Numbered from the stretch's first letter, positions 18,401-47,701 are shown. The stretch is 64,000 bases of DNA from Geosiphon pyriformis uo1 (GCA_016748015.1 JAAOMT010000436.1:486703-550702), one strand, 5' to 3'. Notes: generated by a model not told the origin, from the letters alone. Program-made: numbers and translations.

Positions 18401-21400
18401 AATATACTCTTTAAAACTAAGAAATTATCTTTATAGAGAACATTAAAACTGTTATAAGCAAAAAATATTTGGTTTGAAATAATTTTGAACAAGATTTTTT
18501 TAGCTATTTTAATTAACATAATAGATTTAATATTTATTAGTATTCTACTCTAATTATATAACTTCAGAATTATTGAAACCCAAATCTTTCTTTAAAAAAC
18601 AGACATTAAATTAAAGATCAAACATAAGTTCAAAACAACTAAGAAACAACATAATACTTTATTACTATAATGTTTTCAAAACTTATTAAATATATTAAAC
18701 AATCTAACAATTTTGTTATTTGGTAGATCTTTAATTATTTAAACTAGCTCTTTTATATTAATTTTATTTATAATATCAAAAAAATATTATCTTTTATATA
18801 GTTTAGTAAAGAATATTAATAAAACCAAAACTTAAACAATATTTTAGAAATCTAATACTTTTTAGTTCAATTTTTTATAATACTATTCACTTTAGATTTA
18901 ACTTTACCAAGTTTTAAAACCAGCTTTTTACTAACTATCAGATAATCTAAGACAATTTTTTTAAAAAAACACTTTAGTATATTCTTAATTATTTGGTCTT
19001 TGTCTGTGCAAAAATTTTCTATTTGTTTTTAAATTATTTTTTTAATTTCTATTGCTTTAACAGTCTTAAATTTTTAAAGCTTGACAGTATAATAATTTTT
19101 TTTGGCATTTAACAGATATTAAACAATTTTTTTTGATTTTATTATAAGTTTATTCAAAGAAAAAATTTTAGTAGCACTAGATTTATTAAATCTAAACCAA
19201 ATTTGAATAAGATTATTAAACCTAATAGTATTATTCAAAGCAAAAAACTTAAAGATCTTGGAAATCAAAACTTTTAATTTATAAAATTTAAATAATTGCT
19301 TATTTTTTAATCTATTAATTTTATTGAATTAATACTTAAAAAACATTTTCTTAGCTAATCTTACTATTATATCTTTAAAAAAATCTTATATTAAGTTCAA
19401 ATTCTTTGTTTTTTTTTGTTTTACAAAAATTTTTCAATATTAAAAACATCTATAAAAACAAAATATTCTTAAAACAAGTTTATTTTTTTACCAGTTTTTT
19501 TGAATCCAAATTTTTATCAATTTTTGTTTGCATGCTTGTAAACAAAAATAAAATGTCTGTTCACAAGACTTTCCAATTCAAGAAAAATTGAAACAGTCTA
19601 ATAATTAATATTAAAATACTTAAACACATTAAAAACTCTATAATTTACTATTACTAATAAAAAATATTTACTAATTAATATAAAATTAATAGTTTTTTTA
19701 ATGCTTTTTAAATTATTTCAAGTTAAAAATTTGGTCAAAAAACTTTTAAAGAGAGAATTATATAAACTTATATTAATGTATTTTTTAAAACTGGCACTTT
19801 ATTTTATCTTATTTTTATTAAAATTATTTCTTAATACTATATAAATATTGAAGTTAATTGCTTTTTCAACAAAAAAGTTTATAACATCTATCTAATTATG
19901 TTTTTTACTTGTCAAAACATTAGCATAAAGTTCCAAAACTACCACTAAAATATTGTTGCTAAATAACAAATAAACAGACAAAAATTGGTCAAAAATTTTA
20001 AAGATTATATATATATATTGAATAAAAGTATTATTTAAAATTATTATTACATTTAAATTTAAATAACCAAATTTCAAACCAAAAATATAGACTTTCATAT
20101 CTAAAAACTTGTTTTTAATTTAAAGTTTGTTTTTTTAACTTTGTTTCAGAAATAATAAAGACCAAATTGTCAGAATTTTTATATTATCTAATAATATTTA
20201 TTTATTTAGTCATATTATTCATTTTTTTAATATTGTATATTGCAAATTTTCAAATAAAATTAGTTATTAAGATGAAAAAAATACTGAAAAACTCATAATT
20301 AATCTAACTTTTTTAAAACTGAGTTAATAAAAATCTTAAAAACAACTATTTTTAATTTTAGTCTATTTACTTTGATTATTAAAACTTTAAAACTATTTAA
20401 ACTCAAATCTGAAATCTTAGGTATTATTAATAATAATAAAAACAACTCTTAAGACTTATTTACAACTATATTCAAATCCAAACTTGAATCTATTATTATT
20501 AAGACAGTTGAAACAGAAAGTTAAAAAGTAGAAATTAGAAATACCAAAATCACATTATTTAGTTTGTATACAATATCAGATATTTAGTCAGTTAGTAACT
20601 TTAATAAATATTTTAATAAAGCCAAATAAGTTTTAAAAAATAAAACATCTTGTAAAAAACATAGAATTTTATTATTATATAGATACCAAAAAAAAAAGCC
20701 AAAACTAGAACCAGAAAAAACATTAATAAGAATAAAAGTCAATAAAATCACCTAAATTTAAGACTTGTTACCAAAAACAACAGAATGTAAGATAAGAACA
20801 CTTTTTTTAATATATAATTTAATTAACTAAAGACAGTTTTTTTTTTAATACAAACTTTTTATATACTCTTAAAAAAAAAGAAAATAATATATCTAATGTA
20901 TTATATTCCAAAGCAGAATGTTTAAAGTTTTTACATTTTTTATATTAAATTAAATCTAACTTAGTTCAAAAAAGTTTAATATTACCTAAAATCGGCTTAG
21001 TATAAAAAATTAACTCTAATTTTTTTTTAATCCAAAGCCAATCATAGTATAATGAACTTTATTATTATTTTCAAATAATTAATTGATGATACAAGTTTTT
21101 TTGCCAACTTTTTTTAGTAAAATATTAAAATAATAAACTATTATTTTTATAGACAAAGTAAATAAAAGTGCTCTAAAATGATTTTTAAATATCTAAACAT
21201 TATAATTTTTTATAGTTTTGGTTATACATATTGAATTTTTTTCTAATTAAGAACAACTATTTAAATGTTAACCAATCTACTTGGTTTATTTTGGCAAATT
21301 CTATTATAGTCTTCTACTATAGTTTAATTAGTTATAATTAAATTAACACAATTTGTCTAAACTTAATTACTGCAATGATAATTATATTTTTAAGTGTGTT

Positions 21401-22237
21401 TATGAAAATTTTTTTAATTATCACAGCTTAATTTAAACAGAAATCTTGTTTTTTAAGATTATAGTTTACTTTAATGTTCTTTTTTTAGCTAATAATATAG
21501 TTTTTACTATGTTTTTCTTTAATGTAAATATAAATTTAATAATTTTTTTAAATTTTAAAGGAGTAGTAATCTTCTTAAAACTATTAACTATTGAAAAAAT
21601 TGTTCTAATTGTCTAAGTTTTTGCAGTTGCTAATTTGTCTTTTACTGTTAAAAGATTGATATTTAATACAAAAAATTTTTTAACTGCTATTTTTATCTGA
21701 ATTTTAATAATTTTAAAATTAATCTATTTTTTGTTTAAAGAAATATTAAGAAAAAATAGAAAATATCTAATATTTTTTTCTATTTTGAAATTAAGTAAAT
21801 TAAAAAAAAATCACAATCTATATAAGTATTTACTCTTTTAGTTTTAAAAGTAACAGCAGCTGAATTCAAAAAAATTTACTATTAATATCAGCCATAATAT
21901 TATTGTCTTTATTATTATTAAATTTATTATTTATATTTAAATATATACTAATACTAAGACCAAACTTGACTAAAAAAATATTTTTCTTGTTATTAGAGTA
22001 TTTGACATTACCAAAAATAATCTTTTTTTTTTGAAAGAAAAAACTATTAACAAGATTATAAAAAGTCTTTTGTGTATTTTTTTTAAACATGTTATTACTT
22101 AAAGCAGCTTTTAAGTCTATAATAAAAAGATTATTAGCTTAAAAAATATTGAATAAAAACAACAAAAAACAAAAAACTTCTTTTTTTAAAAATTATGTTC
22201 TTTAAAAAATTTTAGATATAAGAAAAAAAAAAGTTTT
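15470..22237 (-). mobile_element. Full-length but heavily AT-shifted LINE (same superfamily)
   Basis: 3' UTR remnant at ~15480-15600. RNase H remnant IYTDKS (16679..16963). RT remnant NFLVLKS...PVFAIGSIIKNAL (18331..18519). ORF1 remnants to ~22100. 5' end AAAAAAAGTTTT at ~22225-22237. Confidence 0.85.
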
Positions 22238-24070
22238 ATCAAAAATTCAATATATATTTTATTTAATTAAAATAATTATATAAAAAATTAAATTAATTAT
22301 TATAAATAAATTTTATAAAAATAAAAAATTTAAAAATATAATTTCTATATTATTAATTTAAAAGTATTTATTAAATTTTATAATTTAGTATTTTTAATAT
22401 AAAAATATAAACAACTTATTATTATTATTAATTAAATTTATATTTGTTTTTAATTTATATTTACTTATTATTTATTTACTCTATATTATTTATTTGTTTT
22501 TTATATTGTATTAATAGTTAAATATTTAAAAAGTTATGTTTATTAAGAATAAAAACTTAAAAAATATTTTTTTAATATATATATTATATAAAATATTAAA
22601 ATACTTGAGTATAAAATTATAATACAATTTGTTAAATATAAAAACATATAAAAATTTTATCAAAAAATTTAATTAATATAAATTGATAAAATAAATTATT
22701 AATTACATATTTTATAATTAATAAATTTTAATTAATTTATTTTTCTAATATAATTTATTATAATTTAAATTTGGATAATATCTTATAATATATATTTAAT
22801 ATTAAAAAAACACAAATTAAAGATCTTAAATTATTTAAAAAAATAACAAAAGTAAAAACAATAATAATAATAATAAAATTAAATAAAAATATATATAAAA
22901 TAATTTTATATATTTTTACTAATAATATTTATAATTTTGCTATATTATTATGAGAATTAATAATAAGAAAATCTTTTTTTTATAATTATTCTTATAATTA
23001 TTTTCTTATAATGAATATTTTAAATAGTTAAAAACCTAAAATTATTTTTTTATTTATTTTATTTTCAATTATTAAAATAATAAAAAAATATTAAAATGTT
23101 AATTTTAAAAATTGTTTTACTGCTAAAAAATTTACAAAAAAATCAAGTAAATTTTCAAATTTTTCGTACAATAAAATCAGATTTTTATATTTAGAAAAAT
23201 ATTTATTTAAAATATTAAAAAATAACTTGATAATAAATTATTTAATAATAATTAATATTCATTTAAAAACAATTTATACAAATCATTTTTTAACTATGCA
23301 AATTATCTATTTTTATATTAAATTATTATTGATTTAATTATTATATAATATATTTAAAAAAATTTCTTAATTTACTTTTTAAAAATAAAAAATTACCATA
23401 AAAAAAGTTAAAATATAATTATATACTTTATATTAAATTTTTTTATTAATTATTTTTATCATATTTATTTTAATATATTAATTTAAAAATAATATATTTT
23501 TCAGACTTAAAATTTTATAATATTTGGAATTTTAATAATAAAAAATGTATTTTAAAATTAAGTTAAATAATTAAATACATTAATTAAACTTAAAACTTTA
23601 ATAAATAAAAGTTAAATTATAATAAAAAAATTTGATTAAATCTTTTAAATAATAAAATACATTTAATTTTAAATATTCAATAATTAAATTTTATATAAAA
23701 ATTTGTTATTTTTCTTAAATAATTATGTAATATTTAAAGCATATTGTAACAAAATTAGACAAAATAAACATTTGATATCACTTATCTAATTTTATTTTTT
23801 GTTTGTAACTTGTTAAAATATATTATAAAAAAATACAGTTTTATTTTTGTCAGATTTATTGATAAATACTAATAATTTTAATAATAGATAATATTACTGT
23901 TTTTTTTATTTTTTGTCTATAATTTTGTCTTATAATTTTTTTTTTTTTATCACATTTATTGAGTGAAGTCCAAATGCAAACTAGTACAATACATCAATAT
24001 ATGATCTAAACTAGGTGCAAATCATGTATTTTCCATACGTGACTAGTTACTCGAGCCAATCAGAATGACA

Positions 24071-24979
24071 CTACACCCCTATATAAACAGAAGTCTTATT
24101 TTTAATACCCGAGAAGAACAAACAACATTTACAATACCCAAAACCAACACCAAAAGCATCAGCAATTCCTAACAACCTAACAACACTAGCCGAAAGCACA
24201 GAGGAAAAACCAGATATAGCTACAGGAACAGAACCATCACGTGGAATCAACCTACTCTTCTCCATAAAAGCTCGGTGTTTAGCTCACGCTAACCAGATAT
24301 TATCCCAGAATACAAGACAGAAATCACGCACAAAAGCCACAATATTCTGGACTGCAACCTTAGAATTCTTGAAGACGGAAACAGATTCATGATACCACTT
24401 ACAAAAAACAAAGCCTTTACATAGAGCTGTACCAACAATAACATTAGAGAAGTGAGTAGACAGCAACTGTAAAACACAAGAGGAAGACCAAAATAACCCT
24501 GAGTGTGATTCCCAAATAGAAGCATGAACATCCGCCAGGTGAGCGTGACCAGCAGCATTAGATGGACAAGAAAAAACATGGTCTGAGATCTCAACATTTC
24601 CACAGAACAAACACGCAACACTGGAATAACACCTGTTATAAATATGCTTATGCACAGCTACCAGAAGGCGATGGTACAAAGCCTTTATAAAATATGTCTG
24701 AAAACCAGCAGTCCGAGCACTAGTAAAACCAGTAATTAGGTAGAAGTCCAGATGTCACACCAAAGAAGATTTGGACCAGTCAATGTTAGCACACAGCCTA
24801 TCTATCATGACCCTGGAACCAGAACCAATCTCCCAACGTGCACGGTGAACAGAATGGAAAATGTCACGAACAAAATGTCTTGAATTACCAGAAACCACAG
24901 AGCCATCAGCCCTCAAAAAATGTTCACTGACCACATGGAGTAGCTGCCAAAAGAAGGAAGCGGCTATCCTAGCAAATGC
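24071..24979 (-). pseudogene. LINE ORF2, 3' part: end of RNase H and CCHC C-terminus
   Basis: Continues A-F-A-R-I-A-A after the Gypsy insertion; CLFCGNVEISDHVFSC; stop at 24071-24073. Confidence 0.92.
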
Positions 24980-25963
24980 TATTACCAGAGGTTTTTGGTC
25001 TCTTCTTAGCTCTTGTATGTTTGTTGTAATGCTGTTAATTCACGACTATAGGAAGTGTTTGAACCTCTGATAACTGAATTTTATCTTCAAATTATCTCCT
25101 ATAATTTGAACTGCTGGACTTATAAGTGGAATGGCCAATTCCATGCCAGTTGCTTTGTGTAGTTACATTGTAGTAAATGTCAACTCTTTCCCAGGAATTG
25201 CTTATCTGGAAGCTCATTAAAAATGTGTAGTTATTTTGCTGTGAAAGTCAATTCTTCTACAGAAATTTCGTCTGTAGGTTACCCTAATGATTATAATAAG
25301 AAAATAAAAATAAAAAAATAAAAAAATGTAAAAGAAAATTGAATTCTGTTTTAAGGAAATTGTTTTCAATCCAGGCCTGGAGTCATTAACAGTTTTATTG
25401 AAATTGGTAGCTAATCAATTCCAAAATGTTAGTTGGGTTTTGAAAATTTTTCCAAATGCAATAATTTAAAGAATTTGGTTTTTTGAATTTATTTGATTTT
25501 TATTTTGTTTTTGTGTGTAAAAGATGATTCTAATTGTTAAATCTAAAACAAGATACATTTTCTCAAAGAAAGAAGCCTTTCTTTTATACAATTTGTCATA
25601 ACACTATTTTATGAACTTGAACTTTGCTCTTTTCTACAATTTCACTGAACTAAAGATACATTTCGGCAAACTACAAGTTATTTTTGCGAATTATTAGATA
25701 TTTTGGTGAACTATCAATTATTTCGGCAAATTTCTCCCAATTTCGGCAAACTTTTTGAATGTTACATAGTTCAGGGTATTGCATGATTGATCATCACAAT
25801 TATTTTTATGTTATGTGCAAATTGGATTATTAATTAAATGATAATTTCAGACATTTTACTAATATAATAAGTGATAATTTGAATGATAATATATGCTAAT
25901 TAATGATAGGAGTTATAAAAATAATTTCATGCTAAATATTATCTCCAATTTCATCTGGTAACA
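24980..25963 (-). repeat. 3' LTR
   Basis: Direct repeat of 33857-34845; element-strand termini TGTTACC...GGTAATA. Confidence 0.97.
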
Positions 25964-26651
25964 TAACCTCCTCCTTAAGACTGAGCTTTATCAAAGTCCA
26001 AGTACTGTCTGTAATTTCCAGATAATAATCCAAAATTATTGAAAAAATTTGGTCTGAAAATTGTTAAAATTTCAGTTCTGTAAGCTTTCCAATGTATTGA
26101 ATCTTCAAAGGTTGTAAAATTGGGTTTTATAGGACGTTTTCACAGGTGTGAAATAAGTCATAAAGTCTAAGAGCAGCTTTTAGTTTATAATGACTTTTTG
26201 TAAATCCAGCTGTTGTCTTGAATTCATTGTGGAGTTGTTTCCGAATAGCTTCTTTTGTGAGGTTTGCTGCTGTAAGCTCCCGTTTTCATTCATGAAGTGT
26301 TTTTCTAATGTAAAAATATCTATATATTGGAGTATAGTTGTAGTTTTCTTCATTAAGACACAGTTGAAGTTTTTGTTGAATAGTAGCATTTGGTGGAATA
26401 CTAATAGAAATGAGCATAAAGTTTTCTCTTAAAGCAAGCTTTAAAAGTTCTGGCAGATGAATTCCAGAATAACTTCTTGTGTTCTTTTTATATGGGTAAT
26501 ATTTTTGTGAATTTGGGGCTAAATTTGTAACTATTTTTGTTTGGGTATAATTAATGTGGTTTCCAGTGATAGTAATGGATAATTCGGATATTGTTTTTAA
26601 AGCTAACATTAGTTTTTGGGATAATTGTTGAATGTTTTGAGGAATAGTCAT
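25932..26651 (-). pseudogene. Gypsy ORF3 of unknown function (240 codons including the stop, three internal stops)
   Basis: ATG at 26651. The same frame continues through TGA/TAA/TAA to TAG 25932-25934, running through the PPT into the 3' LTR. Confidence 0.6.
25967..25976 (-). promoter_or_regulatory. Polypurine tract AAGGAGGAGG
   Basis: Purine run 3 nt upstream of the 3' LTR on the element strand. Confidence 0.85.
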
Positions 26652-29600
26652 TATAAGAGATTTGAAAATAAAAGAAAATTATTTTTGATGTATGGGTTTT
26701 TATGTTATTTTTGTTTTTGTTTTTGTAAGATTGTTTCTGAATTATAAGGAGATAACTATAATTATAAATTTAAGTTAAGTGTTCAAGTTGGGGGTTGTTT
26801 AATGACAACTATTGGTTCTAAGTTTTGGGGAATATCTTCAGGATTGATTAAAGGGGAATGTGTACTAATTTGTGAAATTAATGGTTCAAAATTGTTTCTG
26901 GAATTATAGTGTTTCAAACGATTTCCATGTGCAACTTTTGCTAAGATTTCGTTATCAAGTCTTAGCTTGTATGATCCGTTGTCTAGAACTTCATGGATAA
27001 AGAATGGTCTATCCCATTTATTTTCAAATTTTCCACTCCATTGTTTTTTTGCTTTAGTTCTGTATAAGAGAACTTTGTTTCCAATTTTAAATCTATTGGT
27101 AACTGGAGGCAATTTGTCATTATGCCATTCTTTTTGTTGAGCTTGGGAGTGTTCAATATGGGTGGCTGCTATTCATCGTTTTCCTTCCAATATGCTAAGC
27201 AGAGTGTAGGCTCTTCGCTGAAGTGTTTCCTGGAAATTGTTTTTATTAATTGGTTGTGCTGGATATGTTTCCACTGTAAAACTAATTGGTAATGTTGCTG
27301 TCCTTCCATAAGTTAAATCAAATAGTGTGTGTTTTGTGGTATCTTGTTTTAGTGTTCTGTATGCTAGTAACACTAATGAAATAAAGATATCTCATTCTTG
27401 TTCAAAATTGGTTAAGACTTTGGCTAATGACTCACACAGTGTTCTGTTAAAACGTTTTACAAGTCCATTTGTCTGTGGGTGGTAGGGCAAAAACAGAGGT
27501 CTTTTAACATTGAATCATTCACAAATTTTTTGAATTAGATTGTTTACAAAATGTGTTCCTTGATCAAATAAAAGTTCGATTGGGCATCTGTGTTTACAGA
27601 TAATGTTTTCATAGATGAAATTTGCTACTGATTTTGCATCTGCTCATTGAATGGCTCTGGCTTCAGGCCATTTAGTGAGATAGTCTATGGCTACTGCAAT
27701 ATAACGGTTTCCTTGGTTTGTGATAGGTAGTGGTCCGACTAAATCAATACCAACTCAGTCAAAAGGCTGTCCAACTTTAATTGGGTTTAAAGGTTCTATA
27801 GGGTGAGTTTCTCCTCTTTTTTGACAACTATCACAAGATTTAATGTATTCATGAATGTTTTTTTTTATTTGAGGCCAAAGTAATATTCTAGTGTTCTCTG
27901 AGTGGTGATGTCTTTTCTTAGATGTGCTGATGAAAAGTCTGAGTACATGTTATATAAAATGGTTTTTTTTCATGTTCTTATATTAATCTGAGCAGATTGT
28001 TTGGGTTTTTGATGTTTCGATAATAAATAATGTTGTTGTGTAAGAAGTATTGTTTGGATTGTTGTTGTAACTGACGTTTTTTATTTGGAGACCAATCTGT
28101 TGGCATTGTTAATATCTTCAGATATTGTTTAAGATTGTTGTAGTTTTTGGGGTTCATTGTTTGTTGTTTTGTTATTAATTCAAATGGGTGTTGGTTTTGT
28201 ATTCTAATCTTGCCTTATTCTTGAGAGACAATCAATGTTGGTATGGAGTTTTTCTGGTTTGTGGTGTACAATATATTGGTAGTTGGCTAAAAATCCTGTC
28301 CATCAGGTTTGTTTTGCATTCAGCTGAGTGTTTTTGTTCTGAAGCCATTTGAGTCCAATATTATCAGTGATAATATCGAATTCTTTGGGTCTGAGATAAA
28401 GGTTGAAGTGATGTAGGGCCCAGATTACTGCTGCTGTTTTTAGTTCTGTGGCAGAGTAGTTTTTCTCAGCTGGTTTTAATGTTCTGCTAGCATAAGCAAT
28501 TACTCACTTATTTCTGTTGTTATCTAATTGTGATAAGATGGCACCAAAGGCAGTGTAAGAAGCGTCTGTAGCTAGTCAAAATTAGTTACTGAAGTCTGAA
28601 TAGGCGAGAATTGGAGCTGTTGTCAGCTTTTCCTTGAGAATTTCAAAAGCTTTTTGGTGTTCTTTTGTCCATTTGTATTCGACGTTTTTAGTAGTGAGCT
28701 GGTTAAGGGGTTTTGCAATTTCTGAGAATTTTTTGATGAATTTTCGGTAATAGGATGCTAATCCAATAAATCCTTTCAATTCTGTGGTGTTTTGTGGGGT
28801 CTTGAAGTTCTTGACAGTGCTGATTTTTCCAGGGTCTGGTTTAATTCCATCTTTGCTCACAATGTGGCCAAGAAAGGCCAAACTCATTTTTCTGAAGTAG
28901 TATTTTTCAATGTTCAGTTTCAATCCTGCTTTCTGTAATCATTGAAAAACTTCTCGCAGGTGTTTCAAAAGATGGTAAATAAACATCAGTATTATTGAGA
29001 TAGACAACTACTGATTTCCAAAGAAGGTCTTTGTAAACAACATCCATGAGTCTTTGGAATGTTGCTGGCACATTGCATAATCTGAAAGACATTATGTTGA
29101 ACTTGTAATTTCCTTTTTGAGTGGTGAATGCTGTTTTGGGACGATTTTTGGGGTCCATAGCAACTTGCCAGTATTCACTTTCTAGATTTAGTGTTAAAAA
29201 GTATTTGGCCTTTCCAAGGGCATTCAACATATTATCAATTCAGAGAAGAGGATAGGCATCTTTAATAGTAACACTATTGAGTTGTTGATAATCAACACAA
29301 AATCATATCTTTCCATTTTTCTTTTTAACTAAGACCACAGGTGAGGCCCATGGATTCATTGATGGTTGAATAAGCCTATTGTTGAGCATCTATTGTACTT
29401 TTTTGTGGATAAATTTGTGGCTTTCTGAAGCAACTCAGTAGGCTTGCTGTCACCTTGGTTTGGCATCTTCTGTATAGATTTGGTGTTAAACCAAATTGGT
29501 CTTTCCTAAGTCATTGTTGTCTTCGGCAAAGATATCAGCAAATTCTGCAATTAGCTTTTTGAGCTGGTTTTGTTGTTGTGGTTCAAGTTGTTCTATGTTG

Positions 29601-30031
29601 ATTTGAGATAGTTTTTCCATGACAACATGGTAGTTTTCAGAGCTGGGGTTTGGGTTGATTTTTGGTAGTGAATGTCCAATAATTTCAGAGAAATTGAGGA
29701 CTGTTTGGGGTAATTCTTGTTGAAAAATGTTACTGTGAATGACTCTAATTTCTAAGTTATTTAATAAAACTATGGGATAATTGTTGGAATTATAAAAAAT
29801 AACTCGGACTTTCTTTGTTCCTTCTGAAATATAAATGTTTAGGATCAAGATATTATGTTCTAAGCAGACTTGTTCATTGGATTCAAAAATTTGTTGTGTG
29901 GTTGTTGGCTTTAAGCAGATGTAAATTTCTGGATGTTCTCTAAAGAGTGAAATAGTAATTGGTTGTAGAAGTCGTAAAATCTGGTAAGATTCATTTTGTT
30001 CATTAAGAGCTATGTTTACTGGAACTGTGAA

Positions 30032-30425
30032 TCATCCAGTTGAACCAAAACCTTGGGTTCCTCTTTCACTTTTTCCCAATAGTTCTCTTTGATTGACTAA
30101 TTGTAAACCCAAAATGTTGATTAAGGGTAAATAAATGGCTTGGGCAATTTTTTTGGCATGTTCAATTTTAAATAGCTTGTCAGTTTCATTTTGGAGTATT
30201 ACTGTTATGTCACCAGTATATCCCGCATTGATTATTCTTCCTCTAACATTGATTTCTTTGCTTGCCAGAGAGGACTGGAAGGTGATTTGAATCATTGCTC
30301 TTAGTGGAATTTCGAGAGCAATTTTGAAGTTAATTTTTGTGAGAAATTTGGGTTTGAGAATGAGAGTATTCTTGTCTGGATATCTTAGGTCATATCCAGC
30401 ATTAATTTCATGTGCTTTTTCGGGT
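30032..30425 (-). pseudogene. dUTPase domain within Gypsy pol
   Basis: The five trimeric dUTPase motifs are recognisable: AGYDL, QSSLA (RSS), GRIINAGYTG, IAQAI, RGTQGFGSTG. Confidence 0.93.
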
Positions 30426-33400
30426 TTTATTTCTTGTCCATTGTTGTTGAAGTATTTGAGTTGTAAGGCAGGCTGATTTTTAATAAGATAGATGGATGTT
30501 GTTTCAATTTTTTTTGTTGCTTCAGGTTCACCAAATTCGATTTCATATTTGTCACTTTCCCTGGGTAATGAAATGCTAAGGGCATAGCATTCAGGACACC
30601 ATTGTTAGTCATATGGCATTATACACTCCTCACATAATTTAATGTTCATTTGCTCTAATCATTGAATTTGAGCTTCTTGGGTCGGGTAGGTGTGACTTGC
30701 GATTTGGTAGTATACTTTTACTTCATCTTTATAATCAAATCCAGCTAATTCTAATGTATATTTAATATATTCAGCTTCCTTCATTTAAAGGACATCTTTT
30801 TTGGTTCCTCTATTAATTAAAACTATGGCAAGTTCATAGATCATTTCGGCATCATAGGAGTAGTGATAGAGTTTGCTAAGGGCGCTGTTGTATGTGGTAT
30901 TGAAAGATGTTCCACATTTTACCTTTTCTGCAATAGAAAGAGCATATTGGCAAGTTTGATTGCAGACTCCTCCTCTAAATGTGACATCAATCTAGTCATA
31001 TTCATCAGGAAGCTGCTTTCCACAAGTAAGACAGGGTGTTCTATCCTATTTTCCGCTTCTTTTGATCAAGTGGCCTCATCATTCTCAATGGCAGGCCTTG
31101 CAGTAGTAGTAGGTATGACTTTTATATTCTTCCTCAAGTGAAATACAAGCTCCCATTGACAATAGTTTCTTGTGACAGTCCTTATATTTAAGTGGAATAT
31201 AGGGGCGTCGTTTTTTTGGTTCAGGCTTTGAGTAAGGGATATTCCATCCAGGGGTTTCAGGTTCAGAATGTGAAGTAAAATATTCTTGTTCAGTTTTCTT
31301 GGCCCAATTGGATGTTGATCCAAGAGCCATAAATGTTTTGATTATTGGTTTTTCTTCTTTTGGTTCGAATTCAAAAGCCAGGACTTTTTCGGAGCATTTG
31401 TTGAATGTACCACAAGTGGCAAGTACTCGGGCATGTTGTTCTTGGTAGGAAATTGTTAACTTTTATGTCTCCCAATTCAGATTAGCATTGGCTTTTTGGA
31501 GCCAATCATTTCCGATAAGAGCTTGGTATTGGGAAGCATTCATGACCAGAACTTTGACTGGAATGGTAATTCTGTCAATTGTGAATAGAAAGTTGTCAAT
31601 CTCTCCTACTGGAGTTTTTTTCATGCCATCAGCAGTGACAATGATTGTCTGAGCTGGTTGGTCAACATTTCTTTTTAGCTGTTGCATCAATTGATATGTA
31701 ATGATGCTTCTGGTGGATCTACTGTCTAGGATCAGGCAAATTGGCTTTCCTTCTACTTCAGCTTCTGTGTACATTGCAGTAATGGCTTTTTGCTCATTAG
31801 CTGCTGCATTGCTAAGCAAGAATGATGATTTATTTGCTTCAAATTCGAAAGGGAATATATCTGAAAGGTTGGCATTTTCAGCAATTCTGGCTGGTGGGAT
31901 TGTGGTAGGAATATAAGAAGAGTTTTGTTGTCATGCTGCAGCTCTACCTTTTGAGAGTGCAGTATGGTGAAAATTCTGTTCTTCAGGTATTGTTAAATAA
32001 CTGGGTTGAATGTGATAGTGGTTGGGCCTTAGTTGAGCAGAATTTCAAGGAATCAATTGGTTGTTCAAACTGATTCTATTGTTGTTTACTTGGTATTGGT
32101 TTTGTGGTGTAAATTGATTTTGTGTAATCAATCTTTGAACAAGTACCTGATAATGTGGCATGGGTGATTGTTGGTATTGCTGTTGGATTGGCTATGGGGC
32201 AGGCTGATAATAGTTATTTTGGTATTGGGGTCTTGGTAGATAGTAAGCTGGTAGTGGTGGTTAATAATAAGATTGCTGTGGTGAAGGGTAACATTGATTA
32301 CTCCTATTTTGTTGGTCTCATTGTAGCTTTCTACAATCTCTTTTCCAGTGGCCAGGGATTTCACAATAATGGCAATTCTGAGGCTGGTTATTAGAGGATG
32401 ATATGAAGTTATTTTGATTCCGTCTTTGGGGTGGTTGATATCTTTGGGGTGGCTGTTGTTGTTGATTAGTGAAATAGTTTTTGACTTTCTTTGCAAGTTG
32501 GTCAATTTTCTTTTCAGCTGCTGAGCAAGTTTCTCCAATGGCTAAGTTCATGAGTTTTATACAATTGGCTTCTTCCATGGCCATTTCATATCTCTTTGCA
32601 TGCTGAATGGTAGAGTTTAAATCTTCTGGGGCATGTAAGCAAACCTTTTTAATCAGTTTATCTTTTAAACCAGTGATAAATTGATCCAAAATTTGAGCAT
32701 CAAAATAATAATCATTAGTTTCAAGTTGGTGAATTCATCTGAGAAGTTTGTTGAATTTCTCAATATAAGTTATGACAGATTTGGAGGGTTCTTGTTTGGT
32801 ATTGTGAAAACAATTTCGAAGTGTGATTGAGGTGTTGTTATCAGTGAATTGTTCTAAGAAGGCTGCTTTAAAAGCATTCCAATCATTGAATGGAGTGGCC
32901 AAGTTTTCAAACCATTCTCCTGCTGTTCCTTTGAGAAAGTAGAGAATTGTTCTTAACATTCTGGCAGCATTCCATCCATTTGCATCTCCAGTTTTAGTAA
33001 CTTGGTCAAGCCATTTTTGGGGACTGGTCTTAATGTTTTCTCCATTGAATTCAAGGATTTTTATGATGTATGCTGTCATTTTGTCTTCTTCATTTTCACT
33101 GTCTATTGATTCTTCTTCAGATATTTCAGGGTTGTTTTCTTTGTTCGCTGTTGTCTCAAAGTGTTCACTTCAATTTTCAGCTAGAAAATCAAGGAGATTG
33201 GAACTAGTTTGAAGGGGTTTTTGTTGTCTGGTGGGACTTCTGGGTAATGTAAAATCTTCGAGTCTTGCAAATTAATTTAAGGGTGAATTAGGTGTTTGTG
33301 CTTGTGCAAGTAAAGCTGGAAAAGGTGTGATAGTAAGTGGAAGTTTTGAACTGGTTCCTTGTTCAGGTGTTTGTAAGTGTTTGGCAGTTGTTTTTGGTAA

Positions 33401-33842
33401 TATTGAAGTATTTGGGGTGGTTTTTGAGTATTGCTTCAATTTTTGTTTGCCTTTGTTGCTTGTTTCTGTCTCTGATTCAAAATCAATAGAGTATTGAGAC
33501 TGCACTGGATATGTTTCTTTACAGTACTTGATAATGTTAAAATTAAGTTCTTGAAAGTAAGTGGCAAGTGTTTCACTGTTAAGGTCTTCAGTTCCCAACT
33601 GTGAATAGTGTACTAAATTATTGTAAAGGTTGCTTCTAACTTCTGAGATATTGTAATTTCCAAAAAGATAATTGTTGATGCAGTTTTCAATGTATTGGTA
33701 TACCGATTTCTTGACAACTTCAATTCTGTCTGGAATGTTGAATCTTTGCTTGCAGTGAGTGTAAATTGATTGGTAATACTCTAGAGTTGTTGTGTCTGGT
33801 GTGGTTGCTACTTTAAAGTTGTTTTTGCTGTGTTGTTTCCAT

Positions 33843-33854
33843 GGGAGAGCACCA
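33843..33854 (-). promoter_or_regulatory. Primer binding site TGGTGCTCTCCC (priming tRNA not identified)
   Basis: Starts with TGG 2 nt after the 5' LTR end, complementary to a tRNA 3' CCA end. Confidence 0.75.
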
Positions 33855-33856
33855 AA

Positions 33857-34845
33857 TATTACCAGAGGTTTTTGGTCTCTTCTTAGCTCTTGTATGTTTG
33901 TTGTAATGCTGTTAATTCATGACTATGGGAAGTGTTTGAACCTCCAATAACTGAATTTTATCTTCAAATTATAGGAGATAATTTGAACTGCTGGGCTTAT
34001 AAGTAGAATGGCCAATTCTGTGCCAGTTGCTTTGTGTAGTTACATTGTAATAAATGTCAACTCTTTCCCAGAAATTGCTCATCTAGAAGCTCACTAAAAA
34101 TGTGTAGTTACTTTGCTGTGAAAGTCAACTCTTCTACAGAAATCTCGTCTGTAGGTTACCCTAATGATTATAATAAAAAAATAAAAATAAAAAAATAAAA
34201 AAATGTAAAAGAAAATTGAATTCTGTTTTAAGGAAATTGTTTTCAATCTAGGCCTGAAGTCATTAACAGTTTTATTGAAATTGGTAGCTAATTAATTCCA
34301 AAATGTTAGTTGGGTTTTGAGAATTTTTCCAAGTGCAATAATTTAAAGAATTTGGTTTTTTGAATTTATTTGATTTTTATTTTGTTTTTGTGTGTAAAGG
34401 ATGATTCTAATTGTTAAATCTGAAGCAAGATACATTTTCTCAAAGAAAGAAGCTTTTCTTTTATACAACTTGTCGTAACACTATTTTATGAACTTGAACT
34501 TTGCTTTTTTCTACAATTTTGCTGAACTAAAGATACATTTCAGCAAACTACAAGTTATTTCTGCGAACTATTAGATATTTTGGTGAACTATCAATTATTT
34601 CGGCAAATTTCTACCAATTTTGGCAAACTTTTTAAATGTTACATAGTTCGGGGTATTGCATAATTGATCATCGCAATTAGATTATTTTTATGTTATGTGC
34701 AAATTGGGTTATTAATTAAATGATAATTTCGGACATTTTACTAATATAATAAGTGATAATTTAAATGATAATATATGCTAATTAATGATAGGAGTTATAA
34801 AGATAATTTTATGCTAAATATTATCTCCAATTTTGTTTGGTAACA
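33857..34845 (-). repeat. 5' LTR
   Basis: Direct repeat of 24980-25963, roughly 95% identical by eye. Confidence 0.97.
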
Positions 34846-37800
34846 ATGCATCAGCCTGTTCATTGCCCAAAATGCCTGAGTGACCCTTAATTTTGACCCA
34901 ATTTACATCTAAATTTTTTTTACAAACAATGTTAGCAATATAGCGTCATTTGATCCAACACTGATTTCTAAAGTCCAGACAAGCCAACAAGAATTCAGCT
35001 TTGCATGCATCCAAAGCAGTTTGGCTGTCTAAAAACAAATTAACTGAATGAAAAGAAGGAACACATTCAAGAGCCAGAGCAATGGCCTGCAACTCTGTTA
35101 GCATAGAAGATACCAAGCCAGACACTTCCATTCCCAAACCTGAATTAATGTCTTTAAAGAACACAGCAGCACCAGCTTTCATATCAACAGTATCCAAACC
35201 ACTTAGAGATCCATCTGTATACACAGAAAGATGAGCAGCAACATTAGTGGCCAACAGATCATTACAAACAACACTAAAATCATGAGACAAACAAATATCA
35301 GAAGGAGCATGACCATTCACAAAGGAAGAGCAAGCAGATAAAGAAGCAGCACTATTAAGAAACTGAACAAAGAGATCAAACCAGAAGGGAACCGGACCAC
35401 AGGGGTCCAGCCTTTTCCAGCACTTGAAGGACTTCCAATCATAAATAACATTATTTCAGTCGTAAAGTTGATTCACAAAAGCAATACCATAATGCTTGAG
35501 TGATAAAACACATTTGAAAAAAAAATTTTCACCAAGGACAAGAGACATAGAAGTACTATCACAAAGGTGAAAAGCACTAGCAAAAGAGACATCCAAAGAC
35601 AAATCACACCTAGAAAAAATATGAACCACGCCAGCCAAAAAGTTATTTGAAGGATTGATATTAATATAAACCAAAAACAGCAAAAAGTGATGAGGATGCC
35701 AGCTGAAAGCTTGAAGGTCATGAGACCTGTGGGAGAACAAATGGCCCAAAGTACCAACTGAATTAGCAAAAGCTATAATGGATGCTGATTTACTCTCAGC
35801 TTGATTCTGCTCAAAAGTTTTCAAACTGTACAAAGAAGAATAATAAACTGCGTTATTGGAAAAATCAAGTAGAAGCCCAGACTTAGACTTCAAACATTTA
35901 TGAACCATACAGTCCCATTTGGCACACACACTAATAAAAACAAAGCTGAATTGAGTCCTGTAGCTGATGATAGGAAAAAAAACCACAGAAACCAAGTACG
36001 CAAACTGTTTATCCGAAATCGCTTTCCTTAGGACAAAATTGCCAAAGAACCAAATGTCCGAGTGAGTCTTAGCTAAACTAGGCTTCAAAAAACCCTCAGA
36101 AGACAAAAAAATTCCTAGGTACTGATGAGATTCCCCCTTTTTCACAATAGAAATAAACAAGCCACTGATGGTCAGATAAGGGTTCGCAACCTAACAGTTA
36201 ATAGGAATAGCAACAGTCTTGTCATTGTTAATAAAAATGTCATTGAACCTAAAAAATTCACTAGCAACATTGAGAATGTATTACATCACAGCCTAGCTGC
36301 TGCCAATTCAAATTGTGTCATTGACAAAAGCACCAGCAGCCAAAAATGATGTCAACTTAGCTTGAAGTTCCACATGACCAGTTTTGGAAATAAAATGAGA
36401 AATCAGTTTATAACCACACAAGCTTTCCTGTTTTTTAACCTCGCACAAGAGCAAATCATAAAATATCCACCAAAGAAGCAGTGAGAAAACTTCACCCTGA
36501 TCCAAGCCATTATGGACACGGTAGCCATCAGTTAGGCCAAAGTTTGTCATTACTCTATTAGTGCGACCATTGTGGATGCTGCCAAAAAACCTAATAAACT
36601 GGTTACACATTTTGATTCTGACCAGGCTCTTCTCGAGATGCTTTCAACCAACAGAATTGTAAGCCTTGTGCATATCTTGCAACACCAGCCACAGCTCCTG
36701 GTTCTTCTCCAAGGCATTCTCCATCACAAATCCAATAGCAAAAATAGGCGACTGTGTTGTCGTGCCCTTCAAAACAGAAAAATTGTCCCCACAAAGAACA
36801 TCAAACTTACTGCAAGCCAAAGAGATCCTGTCTAACAGAATCTTGGAAAAAATCTTGTGGGCCATTTTAATCAAAGCAATAGGGCGGATGTTTGTAAAAA
36901 TGCCTTCCTATTCATATGGTTTAGAAATCATGGAGACCCAAGCTTCTTTCCAGGGCCCAGGCACAGACTTCCATTCCAAACAAGAATTCAAAAGCACTAA
37001 AAGCATATCCAGAACTCTTTTGTCACAATATTTCCACAGTTTATTGGAGATTCCAGAAAGACCAGCCGCCTTTCCATCAGGCAAACTCGAAACAACATCA
37101 AACATTTCATTGAAGCCAATTGAACACATCACACCAGAGAATGCACTATCAAAGACATAATCCAATGGTCGGAATTAGTGCACCCAATCATCAGAGATAT
37201 CTGACACCACTATGCACTTCCTAGTCTAGCCTTCCATAATTTCATCAACCTTAGATTTAACCAATTCAGGCTCTAAGACCAACTCATCACTCACAACCAA
37301 ATAATCTAGTACTACTTTACAAAAAGAACATTTTAAAACACTCCTAATAGTACACCCTTTGTCCATTTCAAAACTTTCCATCCTATTCTTAATGGCTCGC
37401 CTGATGTGAGCTTCCCCAGCACACTTAAATTCTAGCAACTTAGAAGAGCAGTAAGACTTCTTTGCCTTAGCCAGCTCAGAGCAAATGGTATCAAAACTAG
37501 AACCCGAAAGGAAAAAAAATTTTACAGATGAGGCACCAACTGAGTCAAGCCTGTCTCACATATTCAACAGCAAAGCAAAATTCCCATCAGAGACCAAGTG
37601 AGAAGATTTCACCAGCTTAGAAACAAGCAGCTCCAGCTTGTGAAATTTAGAAGACACCTTATTAAAAACACTATCAAAACCCTTAACCCATTTTTTTTTG
37701 AATGTCCCACCAGCCAAAATAACCATAATTTTGCAAACAATGTCCCATATCATATCCATATCTGAAAACCTTTCAGCCATAGCAAACGCATCCAAGAACA

Positions 37801-38632
37801 TAGAAGCATTAGCAGTTGAAGCATTTTTGAACTCCAACCACTTCACAGCATTGACATTCTTGATGTCAAACTTCCAATGATCTTTGTTAGTCTGTTTGTA
37901 CAGAGAGAAAAGCTGCATATCTAACAAATCACCCAGACCCACAGAAACAAAAACAGCCTTATAATCAGTATCAAAGAAATCAATGACACTCATCACACCT
38001 CAATTCACAATAATATTAACCAAATTAGAGGAGACAAACACATAATCAATTGTCTTGGTAACACCACAAGAATTGTTCTATGTCGGTTGCTTAGTCAAAG
38101 GGCCCACACCCAAAGAATTGATTAATCCCAAGTCATGGCATTTCTTGAAACTAGTACACTTATGTGAACTATCCTTGTTAAAATCACCACCAAGGATAAC
38201 AAAAAAAGATTTATTCACAGCTTTCATGATCAGAGAATTGATCTCAGCCACTTGAGAAAACCAAACAGTCAGGAAGGCATCAGCATAGAGCCCCAAAATC
38301 AAAACCAAAAGTTTATTCTTGAAAAGTAACCTGATGCAAAGAAGACAACCCGAAACCTCAGAAGTTTTACACATATGTTTGGCCAAAGAGTTGTTCATGA
38401 CAATTGCTACACCAGCACCCACATAGCCAGAGTTCAAATCAGAAGAGAAAACACAAACACCATCAAATTTGGTAGCCAACCATAGACAAGTCTTATCCTT
38501 TAACTTAGTCTCTGTGAAGATCAAAACCAGATTGTTCATATCTCTATGCCATCAAATAATGTTGTCCTGTTTAGCAGGAACATTTATACCTCTAATATTA
38601 CAAGTAGCAATTCTCCAAATAAGACCACTCAT
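34846..38632 (-). pseudogene. LINE ORF2, 5' part: AP endonuclease, reverse transcriptase, most of RNase H
   Basis: APE motifs IATCNIRG, FTETKL, ILGGDFN, TIDYVF, TDYKAV. RT motifs NIRPIAL, LQDMHKAYNSV, GLDQGEVFS, AFVND, YLGIFL. RNase H motifs VYTDGS, TELQAIALAL, FLDSQ, WVKIKGHSGILGNEQAD. Confidence 0.93.
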
Positions 38633-40556
38633 TGGAAAGGAGGTTGTGGGAGCACACCACCAGCCAGAACCAAACTGTTAAAACAAGCAAACAAACTCAG
38701 CACCAAGCAGCAAGACCTTCCAATATATTCTCTAACTTGGTAACATGAAGAGATGCAAACGAGTCCTCTACTGTAGCAGTATTCACAGTCTTATCACTTG
38801 TGACTTCTTCCGAACCCACTCCTATCACTATATCCTCTCCTTGATTCTGTGATGAGGAGGCCACTAGCAGCTGACATTCAGGGCTAGGCTGGGGAACTGC
38901 CAGCACGAGTAAATCCAACTTCTTAGCCAACTCACCAATTTGTCCCGCGAGGCTGATGAGACTGCTTTCAATATTTACCAAATGTTTTTCCAAATCATTC
39001 ACAACAGGAGGGAGAGGTTTACCAACTTTGTTGGAACCAAGAATCAAACCAGCACCATGAGAACTACACACCAGAGGAGCACCAACTACTGATGCCCAAG
39101 TTCTGCCACTAAAAGAGACTGGACGAGTAACAAGTGCCTGCTTCTTCTTATAAATGCTGGCCAAATAAACACAATTCAGATCAGTCACCACCCTTTTCCC
39201 ACAGCTACCAGAATTCCCACTTATTGAACACTTTCCATTAGTATGACCATACTGTTTGCATGTAGCACAGCAAGCCAGAAAAAGACCAGCCCAGCACAAA
39301 CTCACTCCCTTAAAAACCAGAACTGAACCAAAAGCAGCCAATTTGGAAGCTACATTCTCAAAACAAATAATAGCGCATCTATCACACGCATACAAGCTAG
39401 GATTACGGCCAATGAAACACATTTTTCCACCATAAGACTCCAACAAGTCTACTAAATCATGAGCAGTCATGCCAATTAGCAGAGTATAGAGCAAAGCCTG
39501 ATGATGGTCTTTTGACACCCACATTTGTTTGTCACCAACAGCCAAAGCTACTCACACAGAATTCTTTCCCACAAGAACAAACTATTTAGAAGCAACCAAA
39601 CAAGCAACCTCAGCTGATTCAAATTCAATGACAGCTTTTTGTCATAAATCAATCAACTGTATCTTGATTGAATTAATCCCATCAAACTTAGAAAACACCA
39701 CCTCAATTGCCAATTTTAGAAGATCAACAGGAATTTCCTTGATGATTACTTCCTGATCCGAACAAATATTTATTTTTCTAAGATCACTGTTAACAATAAT
39801 ATTTTTATTGACTGCTATTAATTTGGCCTTATTCAGACTAGATTCACTTGTGAATGTTGATCTTATGATCCCAAGAAATTTTGAGGGAATCGAAGTCCTC
39901 CCAAAGCCATCAATATGATAAAAAATTTTTTTAATTGAAATTAACTTATCACTATTAGTCTTTCCAGGCACTTTCAACAACTCTACATCCAAGGCAAACA
40001 ATTTAACTGGTCCAAAGACACAACGTACCAAAACACGTGAAATTGCAGGTAGCAGCCAATTGGATCCAGCAAATTTAGCTCCAGGAAGCACCACCTTAGA
40101 ATTGTTGTCATTCATGCTTACGAAGAAAATTGCTTTGGGTGGCTGTTTCAAAACAAAAGTCCTTGTACGTGTTTTTCTAAAAGTTGCATTGTCTTCTATT
40201 TCATCAGTCTCAGAAGTGTTGGGATTCACGTAACTCGTCTCCTCAGCAACTGTGTTTTCTAAATTCTCAACATCTAATACTTTACTAACACTCATCTCTT
40301 CACTATCTATCTCACTACCCCAAGATCTCTGCAGTCCAGCACCGTCATTATGCAGCATACTCACTGAGAGCAGGCCAGCTGATGAGTCCACAACGCCACT
40401 AGAGACACCAGATAACTTCATTTTCTTGTATGAAGGATTACACAAGTATACACTCTCAACATGCGCTTTAATCATTTTGCTGCCAGACTGGGACCCCAAC
40501 CCAGCTGAACTTGAACCCGAAATGCCAGCAGAAGAGCCCACTGGATTCATAGGCAC
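38629..40556 (-). pseudogene. LINE ORF1 (gag-like: RRM-like regions, CCHC knuckle, coiled coil) with nonsense/frameshift lesions
   Basis: ORFs 39642..40556 and 38697..39545; knuckle CATCKQYGHTNGKC; ends ...PQPPFQ* (TGA 38629-38631). Confidence 0.9.
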
Positions 40557-42377
40557 AAATAGAGGTACGTTTAAAGAAATAATGAAAAGGACAAAAGGAA
40601 AAAAGGGTAAGAAAGACTATCTTTTCGACAACTCCAAGCTTTTGTTGTGGTTAGGGAATCAACAAAAAAAAGAGTTTTTGTCTTATAATTAAGTTATTTA
40701 AATAAATATTTTTAAAATTTTATAAATATAATTATAAAATCATATTTAAAAATTTAATATTATCTAAGTAATTGTGTTTTGATTTTTTTTAAAACATAAA
40801 AAATATTAACAGAAATTACAAAATAATTAAAACAAAAAACAGACACAAATATATTAAAATTAATTTAATAAATTTGTTTACTTTTTTTTATTATTTTTTA
40901 ATCATTAAAAATAAGATTTACATAGCTTAAAATAAAAAATTATCTTTTTTTTAAGTATAAAGTAATATTTTTTAACATAATATTTTTTATAAACTTTTTT
41001 GTTATTATATAACTTAAAAAAAAATTTATATATATTTTTTTAGTACAACTTACAAAAAATTTACAAAATAAACTGAATTAATCAAAATATATATTTACAT
41101 AATTATTAAGTTCATAATTAACAATTTGTATTTTTGTTAATTTTTTTTTTTTTACTTGTAAGAAAGATCTGCCAAAAAGTTATAAGTTTTTGAAAAAAAA
41201 ACTTTTTAATGAAAAAAGTATACAGTGTATATACTTTATAAGTTTTATTATTATTAATATTATTTTCAATTATAAATCATTCTAAATTTATTATTTTAAA
41301 AATTGTTTTAAAGCATAGGATTCAAATTGGTATTTTTAAAGGTTTTAAATATATAACATATAATATATATTTGTATCTTTTAAATTAACAAAAAAACCCC
41401 CCCCCCATTTTTATTTATTTATCTAACTTAAAAAGTTTTTATCTACCAAAAATATATTTAGGATCCCCGAACGTTCATATTTTCAGATCTGTCTATTACA
41501 ACCTCGCAATTCCGGCATTTGTACACTTTGTGACCTCGAATACTTTTTTATGTTACCCACACTAGCTATAAGTCTTGTGCGTATTTTTTAAAAATAAAAA
41601 AATTTCCAAGAAATTAGAATCTTTACCTTGTGTCGATGTGCATTAGCATGTGAATGGATATCTGGTGCTTTTATCGTTCGTTTGACCTCCATATTGAAAT
41701 CCAAATCACCCTGTGAACAAATAGCAATACCATTCTGTGAGCTGTCTCACGACAATAATTTCGTTGGGTAACGGGTGACTGGGATAAAGAGATTAGCTTG
41801 AAATTTTCATTAAAACTAAAAGAGGTTTGGTTGCCCGTTGATTCCTAAAGTAGGTTTTTTAAGCTGGTCGTAATTAAGTTAGAACTCTTAAAAGGTATAA
41901 GTACAACTTGAATCTATTAAAAGAGGCTTAAAGCACTAATTGAATAAAATCCATATACCACAATCCCAGTGAAATATATATATTTTTTTTCCATTTAGAT
42001 AAAAGGTCTATAACTGCAAACAGGTTGAAAATTTTTAAGGAATTTAGATTTTAAGAAATTGAAATTAAATCAAAAATAAATTTCAAAGTAATAAATATCA
42101 ACATATATATTTAATTTTAATTCATAAATAATTCATTTAAAAAACTCTTTTAATTAAAAATTTGAAAATGTCGTCGGGAATATATGATTTTTGAAAAAAT
42201 TATTATTTCATTATAGGTAATCTCGAAAATAAGAAATAAATTTAATGGTTAATTATTGCGCTATCATATTATAATATAGTAGTATTATTAATATTTCTAA
42301 ATTAAATTTCATTGGTTTAATAAAAATCCTTGTTCAACTCTTTAAATTAAGCACACACCAAATTACTGATTCAATTT

Positions 42378-42467
42378 CATCCATATCATCCATTCATCCA
42401 TATTATCCATTCATCCATATCACCCATTCATCCATATCACCCATCCATCAATCAATCAATCAATCAA
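42378..42467. repeat. Compound CCAT / ~18-bp / TCAA tandem repeat just 3' of the long-isoform stop
   Basis: TCATCCATATCA(T/C)CCAT-like units followed by (TCAA)n. Confidence 0.85.
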
Positions 42468-42478
42468 TGTTCTTAAAA

Positions 42479-42749
42479 TCATTCCTCTAAATTCTTTGAA
42501 GATACACAACACAACCAAGGTTTTTTAGTCTTCCTTTTACCTCCTCCGGATGATTCAATGTCTCTGCTGCCTGTCGATTGTTCTATTCCACGAGTTGTCG
42601 TTGTGGTTGTTGGTTGATAAGTTTCTTCATCATTTTGTTTTACATTAAAGTTAGGAGTTGCTGAAAGTTCTGTCGTTTGTGAATCATTTAATGGCGATGT
42701 TGAAATGGTGTACGGTTCGGCACCATTAGCTCGTTTCTCGTTTTCAACA
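42479..42749 (-). CDS. Additional terminal exon of the quinone reductase (long isoform, 293 aa): S/T/E-rich linker ending KRKTKKPWLCCVSSKNLEE
   Basis: Donor GTAAGC at 43139 (phase 2), branch-like GCTAAT, acceptor TTTAG ending at 42750. The frame matches (GT+T = Val) and stays open for 89 further codons. Confidence 0.85.
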
Positions 42750-43135
42750 CTAAATTTATAATAAAATTTGTTTAAAAAATATTTTCACGATAAAATAATA
42801 ATTAGCATTTTCAATTGGAGGATCCAAAAGAAGACAATTGAAAGATTGAGTCGATAAATAAATAGAATTAAATTTTTTGTTTATTTTCGTATATTACTTT
42901 ATTAAAAATGGGTATTCTCTCTATTTGTAATATTTTTATTAGAGTCGAAGGATGATTAGAATAAAAAAAGAAGTTGCCAATTTCGAAAAATAAGAATATA
43001 CAATGATCTCACAAATAAATTCATTAAAATATGACGAATAATCAAAGACTCGAAACTTTAATGTGGAAGGCACTTTGCAAGATTTTCTTGAATACTCGAT
43101 GCGGTATGAAGAGGAAGTTGAGATGGGGACTCAGC

Positions 43136-43299: not shown

Positions 43300-43379
<80 letters not shown>

Positions 43380-47634: not shown

Positions 47635-47637
<3 letters not shown>

Positions 47638-47683: not shown

Positions 47684-47686
<3 letters not shown>

Positions 47687-47701
47687 AGTAAAAATATTAT
47701 A

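Follow-up and report, generated by a model that had tools for sequence, protein, structure and literature searches.

Transposable elements (TEs) of Geosiphon pyriformis, a member of the Glomeromycotina (Archaeosporales), lose their cytosines through C>T changes that affect both strands and outpace any other substitution by tens of times, and a host gene island next to them is spared. The evidence was obtained from 64,000 nucleotides of strain uo1 (GCA_016748015.1, JAAOMT010000436.1:486703-550702), hereafter the window, numbered from its first letter, and centres on a Ty3/Gypsy retrotransposon at 24980-34845 and its two long terminal repeats (LTRs). The spectrum is confined to TEs, clock-like, stronger at CpG than at non-CpG sites and biased towards cytosines preceded by T, without CpA bias. 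The cause that we favour, with a probability of about 0.5, is a steady deamination in silenced repeats whose cytosines are probably methylated in every context. A first-pass annotation had described the decay as similar to repeat-induced point mutation (RIP); its directional C>T change on both strands was recovered in the LTR pair, in the contigs and in a second LTR family, and RIP proper was not upheld.

Decay between twin LTRs and among genomic copies

The element lies on the minus strand, nested in a long interspersed nuclear element (LINE), and contains remnants of gag, protease, dUTPase, reverse transcriptase (RT), RNase H and integrase. The same order is found in the dUTPase-bearing Ty3/Gypsy elements (Metaviridae), in which the primer-binding-site-like stretch, polypurine tract and target duplication are likewise present. 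The element itself is ordinary, and it serves as a recorder of mutation and is not the finding. Both LTRs derive from one insertion because the 4-bp target duplication is common to both sides, and they were identical at insertion because of the established mechanism of reverse transcription. The features are listed below.

24976-24979, unstranded: target-site duplication ATGC, 4 bp, with its second copy at 34846-34849
24980-25963, minus strand: 3' LTR, 984 bp, TA...CA ends on the plus strand, decayed 7-bp terminal inverted repeat
25964-25976, minus strand: polypurine tract, preceding the 3' LTR
26783-27949, minus strand: integrase, with TGA stops, one opposite a conserved Trp
28200-29690, minus strand: RT and RNase H, with stops opposite conserved Arg (TGA) and Gln/Glu (TAA)
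30035-30604, minus strand: dUTPase domain
31466-31930, minus strand: aspartyl protease, the query segment for the search of Geosiphon gene models
32318-33169, minus strand: gag (Retrotrans_gag, zinc knuckle), interrupted by stops
33839-33854, minus strand: primer-binding-site-like stretch starting TGG, 2 bases past the 5' LTR
33857-34845, minus strand: 5' LTR, 989 bp, 94.1% identity to its twin

The two LTRs were aligned globally and the C/G state was taken as the older one. They differ by 47 transitions (27 A/G and 20 C/T) and 1 transversion (25736 C / 34613 A), together with one 5-bp indel (after 25798 / 34676-34680) and a 5-bp micro-inversion (25096-25100 CTCCT / 33973-33977 AGGAG) flanked by perfect 10-bp inverted arms (25086-25110 / 33963-33987). 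The roughly 45-50 C/T or G/A differences, the transversion, the indel and the micro-inversion previously noted by eye were thus all confirmed, and both quoted examples of CpGs changed on opposite strands (25068-9 and 25142-3) are real, being two of four such pairs. The probability of at most 1 transversion among 48 substitutions is 9e-8 at a transition/transversion ratio (ts/tv) of 2 and 2e-5 at a ts/tv of 3; for the non-CpG sites alone the chance is 3e-5 and 9e-4, respectively, and at a ts/tv of 10 the two probabilities are 0.06 and 0.19.

Hits are carried by both strands and both LTRs. CpG cytosines were changed at 15 of 28 sites and non-CpG cytosines at 32 of 263 (Fisher p=1e-6), and with 32 of the 47 changes lying outside CpG, passive CpG deamination fails to cover them, as the first-pass annotation had suggested. 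After correction, non-CpG cytosines change to T at 0.059 per site and copy, whereas all other substitutions number 2 in 1958 site-copies (0.001 per site); the ratio is 58 (lower bound 16), and the CpG rate is about 0.38 per copy, some six times the non-CpG rate. Non-CpG changes did not differ significantly by 3' base (CpT 17/95, CpA 11/119, CpC 4/49; p=0.10) and were recorded at 5 of 45 CHG and 27 of 217 CHH sites, and cytosines with a 5' T were hit more often than the others (16/88 vs 16/175, p=0.045).

Polarity was checked with contigs of sequencing run X1; the window itself may derive from this run, which is not independent. A total of 8880 X1 contigs align to one LTR, and 98 of the 105 variable places are transitions. 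Among the 40 of 109 contig-table rows listed, 16 are sites with A/T in the left LTR and G/C in the right; at 14 of these most of the family carries G/C, and the remaining 2 are CpG sites. Position 25577 is a T>C gain. Runs X2-X4 yielded only 7, 1 and 0 contigs aligning to the LTR, too few for use.

The protease segment was then used as query, and 638 proteins were matched; all of the best 120 listed carry the Geosiphon name. These 120 were aligned to the window. Codon columns covered by at least 20 copies numbered 534 and drew on 83 proteins (103 alignments); columns in which the majority fell below half or disagreed with the window were removed, as were 125 ambiguous and 238 multi-step changes. 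The nucleotide changes in these copies are deduced from amino-acid changes in best-scoring, stop-free models that share ancestry. C>T/G>A changes amounted to 1237/14679 (0.084 per opportunity), against 140/22273 for T>C/A>G (0.0063) and 264/95045 for transversions (0.0028; 87 distinct, many of them shared subfamily variants), which places the rate of C>T at 30-92 fold that of transversions. When sites possibly hiding an old CpG were removed, 224 clean non-CpG sites remained, 82% of them affected, and 724 of 9657 cytosines were changed (7.5% per copy), which again bears out the claim of many non-CpG changes. By 3' context the clean sites gave 0.090 for CpC, 0.069 for CpT and 0.061 for CpA, and by 5' context 0.119 for T, 0.084 for C, 0.067 for A and 0.045 for G (site-level p=9e-8 for T). 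A peak at TpCpA (0.164) was set aside, being due mostly to sites that may hide an old CpG, with 3 sites (0.104) left after filtering.

Among the 77 copies with at least 60 sites, no same-strand excess of neighbouring hits was found (0.45-0.47 vs 0.49-0.50 in 500 shuffles), strand ratios were homogeneous (p=0.93) and loads were near Poisson without overdispersion (80 vs 73+/-11). The decay is real and genome-wide for at least one family, and many Geosiphon 'hypothetical proteins' are decayed TE copies.

Several further observations concern the element itself. The micro-inversion occupies the loop of a perfect 10-bp hairpin, which is the usual setting of template-switch inversions. RNase H and integrase are in different frames, about 250 bases apart (27950-28200), and the dUTPase domain (30035-30604) is notable in a setting where uracil or deamination pressure may be high. 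One end of both LTR families (24980 and 996) starts TA and not TG, a decayed terminal inverted repeat; that both LTRs of the young element share this start indicates either an altered parent that was still copied and integrated or a parallel change. At 25549, 25570, 25609 and 25858 both LTRs agree and depart from the family majority, and therefore the parent element had changed before being copied.

Older copies and the host gene island

The window consists mostly of nested decayed retrotransposons, and 67 of its 128 500-bp bins are below 20% GC. No tRNA genes were found when sought in the window. An LTR content of 41.2% is given for G. pyriformis in a passage of PMC11952901. The older elements and the LINE into which the Gypsy element was inserted are as follows (o/e, observed/expected).

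996-1695, plus strand: young LTR of the second family, 32% GC, 4-bp duplication GCGG, assembly gap 1171-1190, inserted in another LINE
2244-2844, minus strand: old 3' LTR of the second family, 12% GC, no CpG
2845-9733, minus strand: old Gypsy interior, about 15% GC, RT still detected by tblastn, younger LINE fragment at about 3150-3930
9734-10173, minus strand: old 5' LTR of the second family, 10% GC; relative to the young copy, 100/142 G:C sites lost, transversions 6/431
15450-21700, minus strand: old LINE, 17% GC, CpG o/e 0.04, TpC 0.76, GpC 1.55
23936-40675, minus strand: LINE (endonuclease-like region, RT-like region, RNase H), host of the Gypsy insertion, 13-bp direct repeat at both ends
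51650-57900, minus strand: old LINE, 18% GC, CpG o/e 0.0, TpC 0.75, GpC 1.91

Most old Gypsy and LINE copies belong to other subfamilies (54-63% identity, 14-30% transversions at G:C sites), and the second LTR family is for this reason the sole clean test of collinear decay. Three alignments with 776 columns were used, in which a stretch of about 115 bases of the young copy is counted twice. G:C to A:T changes amounted to 163/242, against 5/534 in reverse and 13/776 transversions, and a 5' T again favoured change (69/86 vs 85/138 elsewhere, p=0.005). In old LINE and Gypsy interiors the change runs the same way, with 38-67% of G:C sites lost; these comparisons mix subfamily divergence with decay and were used for direction only. 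The statement that older copies continue the trend of the twin LTRs therefore stands as to direction, and 'near-total G/C loss' was an overstatement, the old copies having lost about 40-70% of their G:C sites, with 10-18% GC remaining. Most of this loss falls outside CpG. CpG o/e in the old TEs is 0-0.06, and TpC is depleted (0.65-0.78) and GpC enriched. The assembly gap in the young LTR of the second family (1171-1190) may mark a solo LTR or hide a collapsed interior.

A host gene island lies to the right of the LINE.

41400-49900, unstranded: host gene island, outside exons 21-28% GC, CpG o/e 0.67-1.5, TpC 1.05-1.36
42542-44009, minus strand: WrbA-type flavodoxin gene, exons matching gene model P0121 exactly, four-fold sites 26% GC

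The TE spectrum implies a neutral equilibrium of 1-7% GC. WrbA four-fold sites (27/103 G+C) and introns (155/754) are above this level (p=2e-9 and 1e-33, respectively), and at the right edge of the island composition changes abruptly, from 28% GC with 10 CpG to 11% with none in adjacent 500-bp bins. The core of the WrbA-type protein, compared with Ambispora, shows no drift towards AT-coded residues. Host genes next to TEs are spared, as judged by composition, and the proposal that repeats are targeted agrees with this; the control consists of the base composition of one island and is not a mutation rate. The assignment of the host to the Glomeromycotina was likewise borne out, the exons of the WrbA gene being identical to a Geosiphon gene model and its protein matching Ambispora proteins at 76% and 72%.

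The other contents of the island are less regular. Two unassigned open reading frames (ORFs) have a four-fold GC of 12% (5/40) and 47%, a short host-like ORF piece with a P450-like look is located at 45681-45914, a multi-exon gene resembling a membrane protein is located at 47618-49836, and Pfam returned nothing for the two pieces of island ORFs that were tried. Gene model P0121 (38081-44024) joins the WrbA exons to in-frame pieces of a dead LINE, splicing round stops, and this fusion is probably an annotation artefact.

Possible causes of the cytosine loss

Under the explanation that we favour, CpG in repeats would be kept methylated by a DNMT1/DNMT5-type enzyme, with weaker methylation at non-CG sites supplied by one of the DIM-2 type; deamination of 5-methylcytosine, or of an enzyme-bound intermediate, would then yield T, and repair of the resulting T:G mismatch would be poor. 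Such a process may run in vegetative nuclei, with need for neither meiosis nor repeat pairing, and its outcome would be as in RIP, namely dead, AT-rich, collinear relics. Arbuscular mycorrhizal fungi (AMF) are described as a clade with DNMT1, DNMT2, DNMT5, DIM-2 and RID in a passage of PMC8298701 that cites another study. According to parts of PMC11258239, Phycomyces has DIM2 and its TEs carry CG and CHH methylation, and Dim2 is stated in PMC8016269, in its relevant part, to raise mitotic C>T more than tenfold in Zymoseptoria.

Several observations weigh against this explanation. The 5'-T bias (0.119 vs 0.045-0.084) fits no reported DIM-2 preference, these being CpT in Neurospora and CpA in Zymoseptoria in the relevant parts of PMC13297926 and PMC8016269, and recalls TpC deaminases or ultraviolet (UV) damage; CG is the context most affected here, though it is spared in Zymoseptoria. 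The methyltransferases and the methylation on these elements are presumed, and the part of a 2026 review that treats RID (PMC13297926) lists it for Ascomycota only, at odds with PMC8298701. The GC content of host genes could also be maintained by selection or biased conversion. The choice of open-frame, best-scoring models trims heavily mutated copies and lowers load dispersion, and the copies share ancestry, so that events are not fully independent. In the LTR pair, moreover, non-CpG hits tend to follow one another on the same strand (21/30; strand shuffle p=0.01, label shuffle p=0.07), and all 32 lie in dipyrimidines, with purine-C-A unchanged (0/60, p=0.0002). As general features both patterns were rejected, the strand runs not holding in the 77 copies and the dipyrimidine pattern not being kept in old LTRs or other genomic copies.

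It is unlikely, though worth serious attention, that unmethylated cytosines in repeats are instead converted to uracil, by a putative TpC-preferring host deaminase or spontaneously, and stay unrepaired in closed chromatin, CpG decay being then separate and methylation-driven. APOBEC3- and DddA-type enzymes prefer TpC, the 5'-T bias recurs in three data sets (LTR pair, old LTRs and other copies), and TpC is depleted and GpC enriched in old TEs; the bias is, however, only about twofold, every context is affected, and the same-strand clusters expected from action on single-stranded DNA are absent in the 77 copies. Those strand tests bear equally on a weak form of true RIP, dependent on RID or DIM-2 and on repeat pairing in rare sexual or parasexual cycles, with few hits per round and relaxed context, which we consider rather improbable. 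RIP acts in same-strand bursts per round, leaves uneven loads among copies and affects closely linked duplicates more than unlinked ones. The strand runs of the LTR pair would fit, the end product resembles that of RIP, a composite index exceeds 0 in 31 of 64 one-kb windows, RID is reported for the AMF clade (PMC8298701, in part), and an unrelated metagenome Gypsy family also shows transition-only, broad-context decay (transversion columns 15/1175). Against this, CpA is not preferred over CpC and CpT, strand coordination and overdispersion are lacking, strict index cut-offs are passed by 2 of 64 one-kb windows, and the family is still very abundant, judging from the 8880 contigs on one LTR. 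The linked LTRs (6% per copy) also seem no harder affected than the interior, which has 5 TAA/TAG, some probably off-frame, vs 53 surviving CAA/CAG (rough frames; all parts high-copy).

A genome-wide C>T mutator, for example through lost uracil or T:G repair, with genes spared by selection, biased gene conversion or recent onset, would accord with the AT-richness of the host island outside exons (21-28% GC), but we think it improbable: host introns and four-fold sites are far above 1-7%, the dinucleotide pattern is reversed, composition changes abruptly at the island edge, the WrbA core lacks an AT-coded shift, and the two-thirds loss of cytosines seen in old LTRs would have extended to host introns. 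Geosiphon lives at the soil surface with a photosynthetic partner, and UV damage at dipyrimidines, fixed preferentially in poorly repaired heterochromatin, would account for the dipyrimidine setting of the LTR-pair hits and for the context order of 5'-T, 5'-C and purine in other copies; we nevertheless hold it to be very unlikely, since purine-C-A was changed at 33 of 50 sites in old LTRs and 57 of 1044 in other copies, and CC>TT tandem changes number 0 among 47. Hardly credible is that the LTRs were unlike from the start, by editing of complementary DNA (cDNA) during reverse transcription or by assembly error. Transitions are expected from retroelement editing, which in its APOBEC form would touch one strand only, as G>A on the sense strand, yet both strands are affected in both LTRs and in other copies (C 351/5556, G 373/4101), and it is mainly this two-strand symmetry that refutes editing; loss also increases with age, LINEs decay alike, and assembly error would be neither transition-only nor CpG-biased.

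Known systems and biological meaning

CpG hypermutation of methylated TEs was reportedly described by Clutterbuck in 2017 (PMID 28438577, cited in PMC11451569) for basidiomycetes and early-diverging fungi, and may bear on Geosiphon. As in those systems, CpG decays fastest here, and its o/e value lies close to 0 in old TEs and to 1 in genes; two thirds of the LTR-pair changes, however, lie outside CpG, and the process in Geosiphon is not plain CpG decay. Nor is it filed as RIP, because two tested RIP features fail. With the RIP of Neurospora and other Pezizomycotina, in the relevant part of PMC12543289, it shares transition-only change on both strands, AT-rich collinear relics and sharp gene-island borders; Geosiphon differs in the lack of CpA preference, strand runs and load overdispersion, and in a TE family that is still abundant.

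The closest likeness is to the Dim2 mutator of Zymoseptoria tritici, for which the parts of PMC8016269 drawn on here describe more than 95% C>T, confinement to TEs, effects at non-CG sites, and neither bursts nor meiosis, as in Geosiphon. There, however, more than 98% falls at CpA and CG is spared, whereas in Geosiphon CpG is highest and CpA is not above CpC/CpT; the two fungi belong to different phyla, and Geosiphon has a 5'-T bias and a presumed enzyme. Another claim of RIP-like signals outside Dikarya, in TE-rich genomes as here, concerns the Entomophthorales (PMC11105155), where the relevant section uses dinucleotide indices only, while in Geosiphon direction, rates and contexts come from aligned copies.

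In the sections of the survey PMC12543289 used here RIP-like signatures are found only in ascomycetes, and Geosiphon was absent from the 12 of its 19 supplementary files that were searched. Rhizophagus TEs carry CG methylation and, citing others, no RIP signature was detected in Gigaspora or Mucoromycotina (both in passages of PMC8647823); the consulted parts of PMC12210899 and PMC7862722 added nothing on Geosiphon. For Geosiphon or other Glomeromycotina, no account of TE hypermutation outside CpG was found in the literature covered, which did not extend to the genome paper of the species or to Clutterbuck 2017.

Metagenome relatives of the element comprised 55 loci, too short for twin LTRs. 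A distant Gypsy family among them (L036, L038, L045, L051, L053 and L055; host unassigned) has 32-38% amino-acid identity to the query and shows transition-only decay (e.g. 200:7 and 169:3), with contexts in the order CG > CA > CT > CC. The high ts/tv of loci L005 and L030 was rejected as a decay signal, being largely third-position and synonymous.

Non-CpG, repeat-confined C>T in an early-branching glomeromycete gives the reported DIM-2 and RID of AMF something to explain, and the origin of RIP becomes testable outside Dikarya. Because strand bursts are lacking, the process should not be cited as a sign of sexual reproduction in these fungi. In Geosiphon, TE ages taken from LTR dating or Kimura landscapes would come out many times too high under the assumption of an ordinary clock. 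More tentatively, and as a possibility that we would not yet lean on, the decay may reflect an active repeat-targeted cytosine mutator with TpC and CpG preference, continuous in vegetative nuclei: a genome defence that arrives at the outcome of RIP with neither its CpA signature nor its meiotic bursts, goes largely unnoticed by strict RIP indices, and may extend across Mucoromycota as an early version of the DIM-2/RID system.

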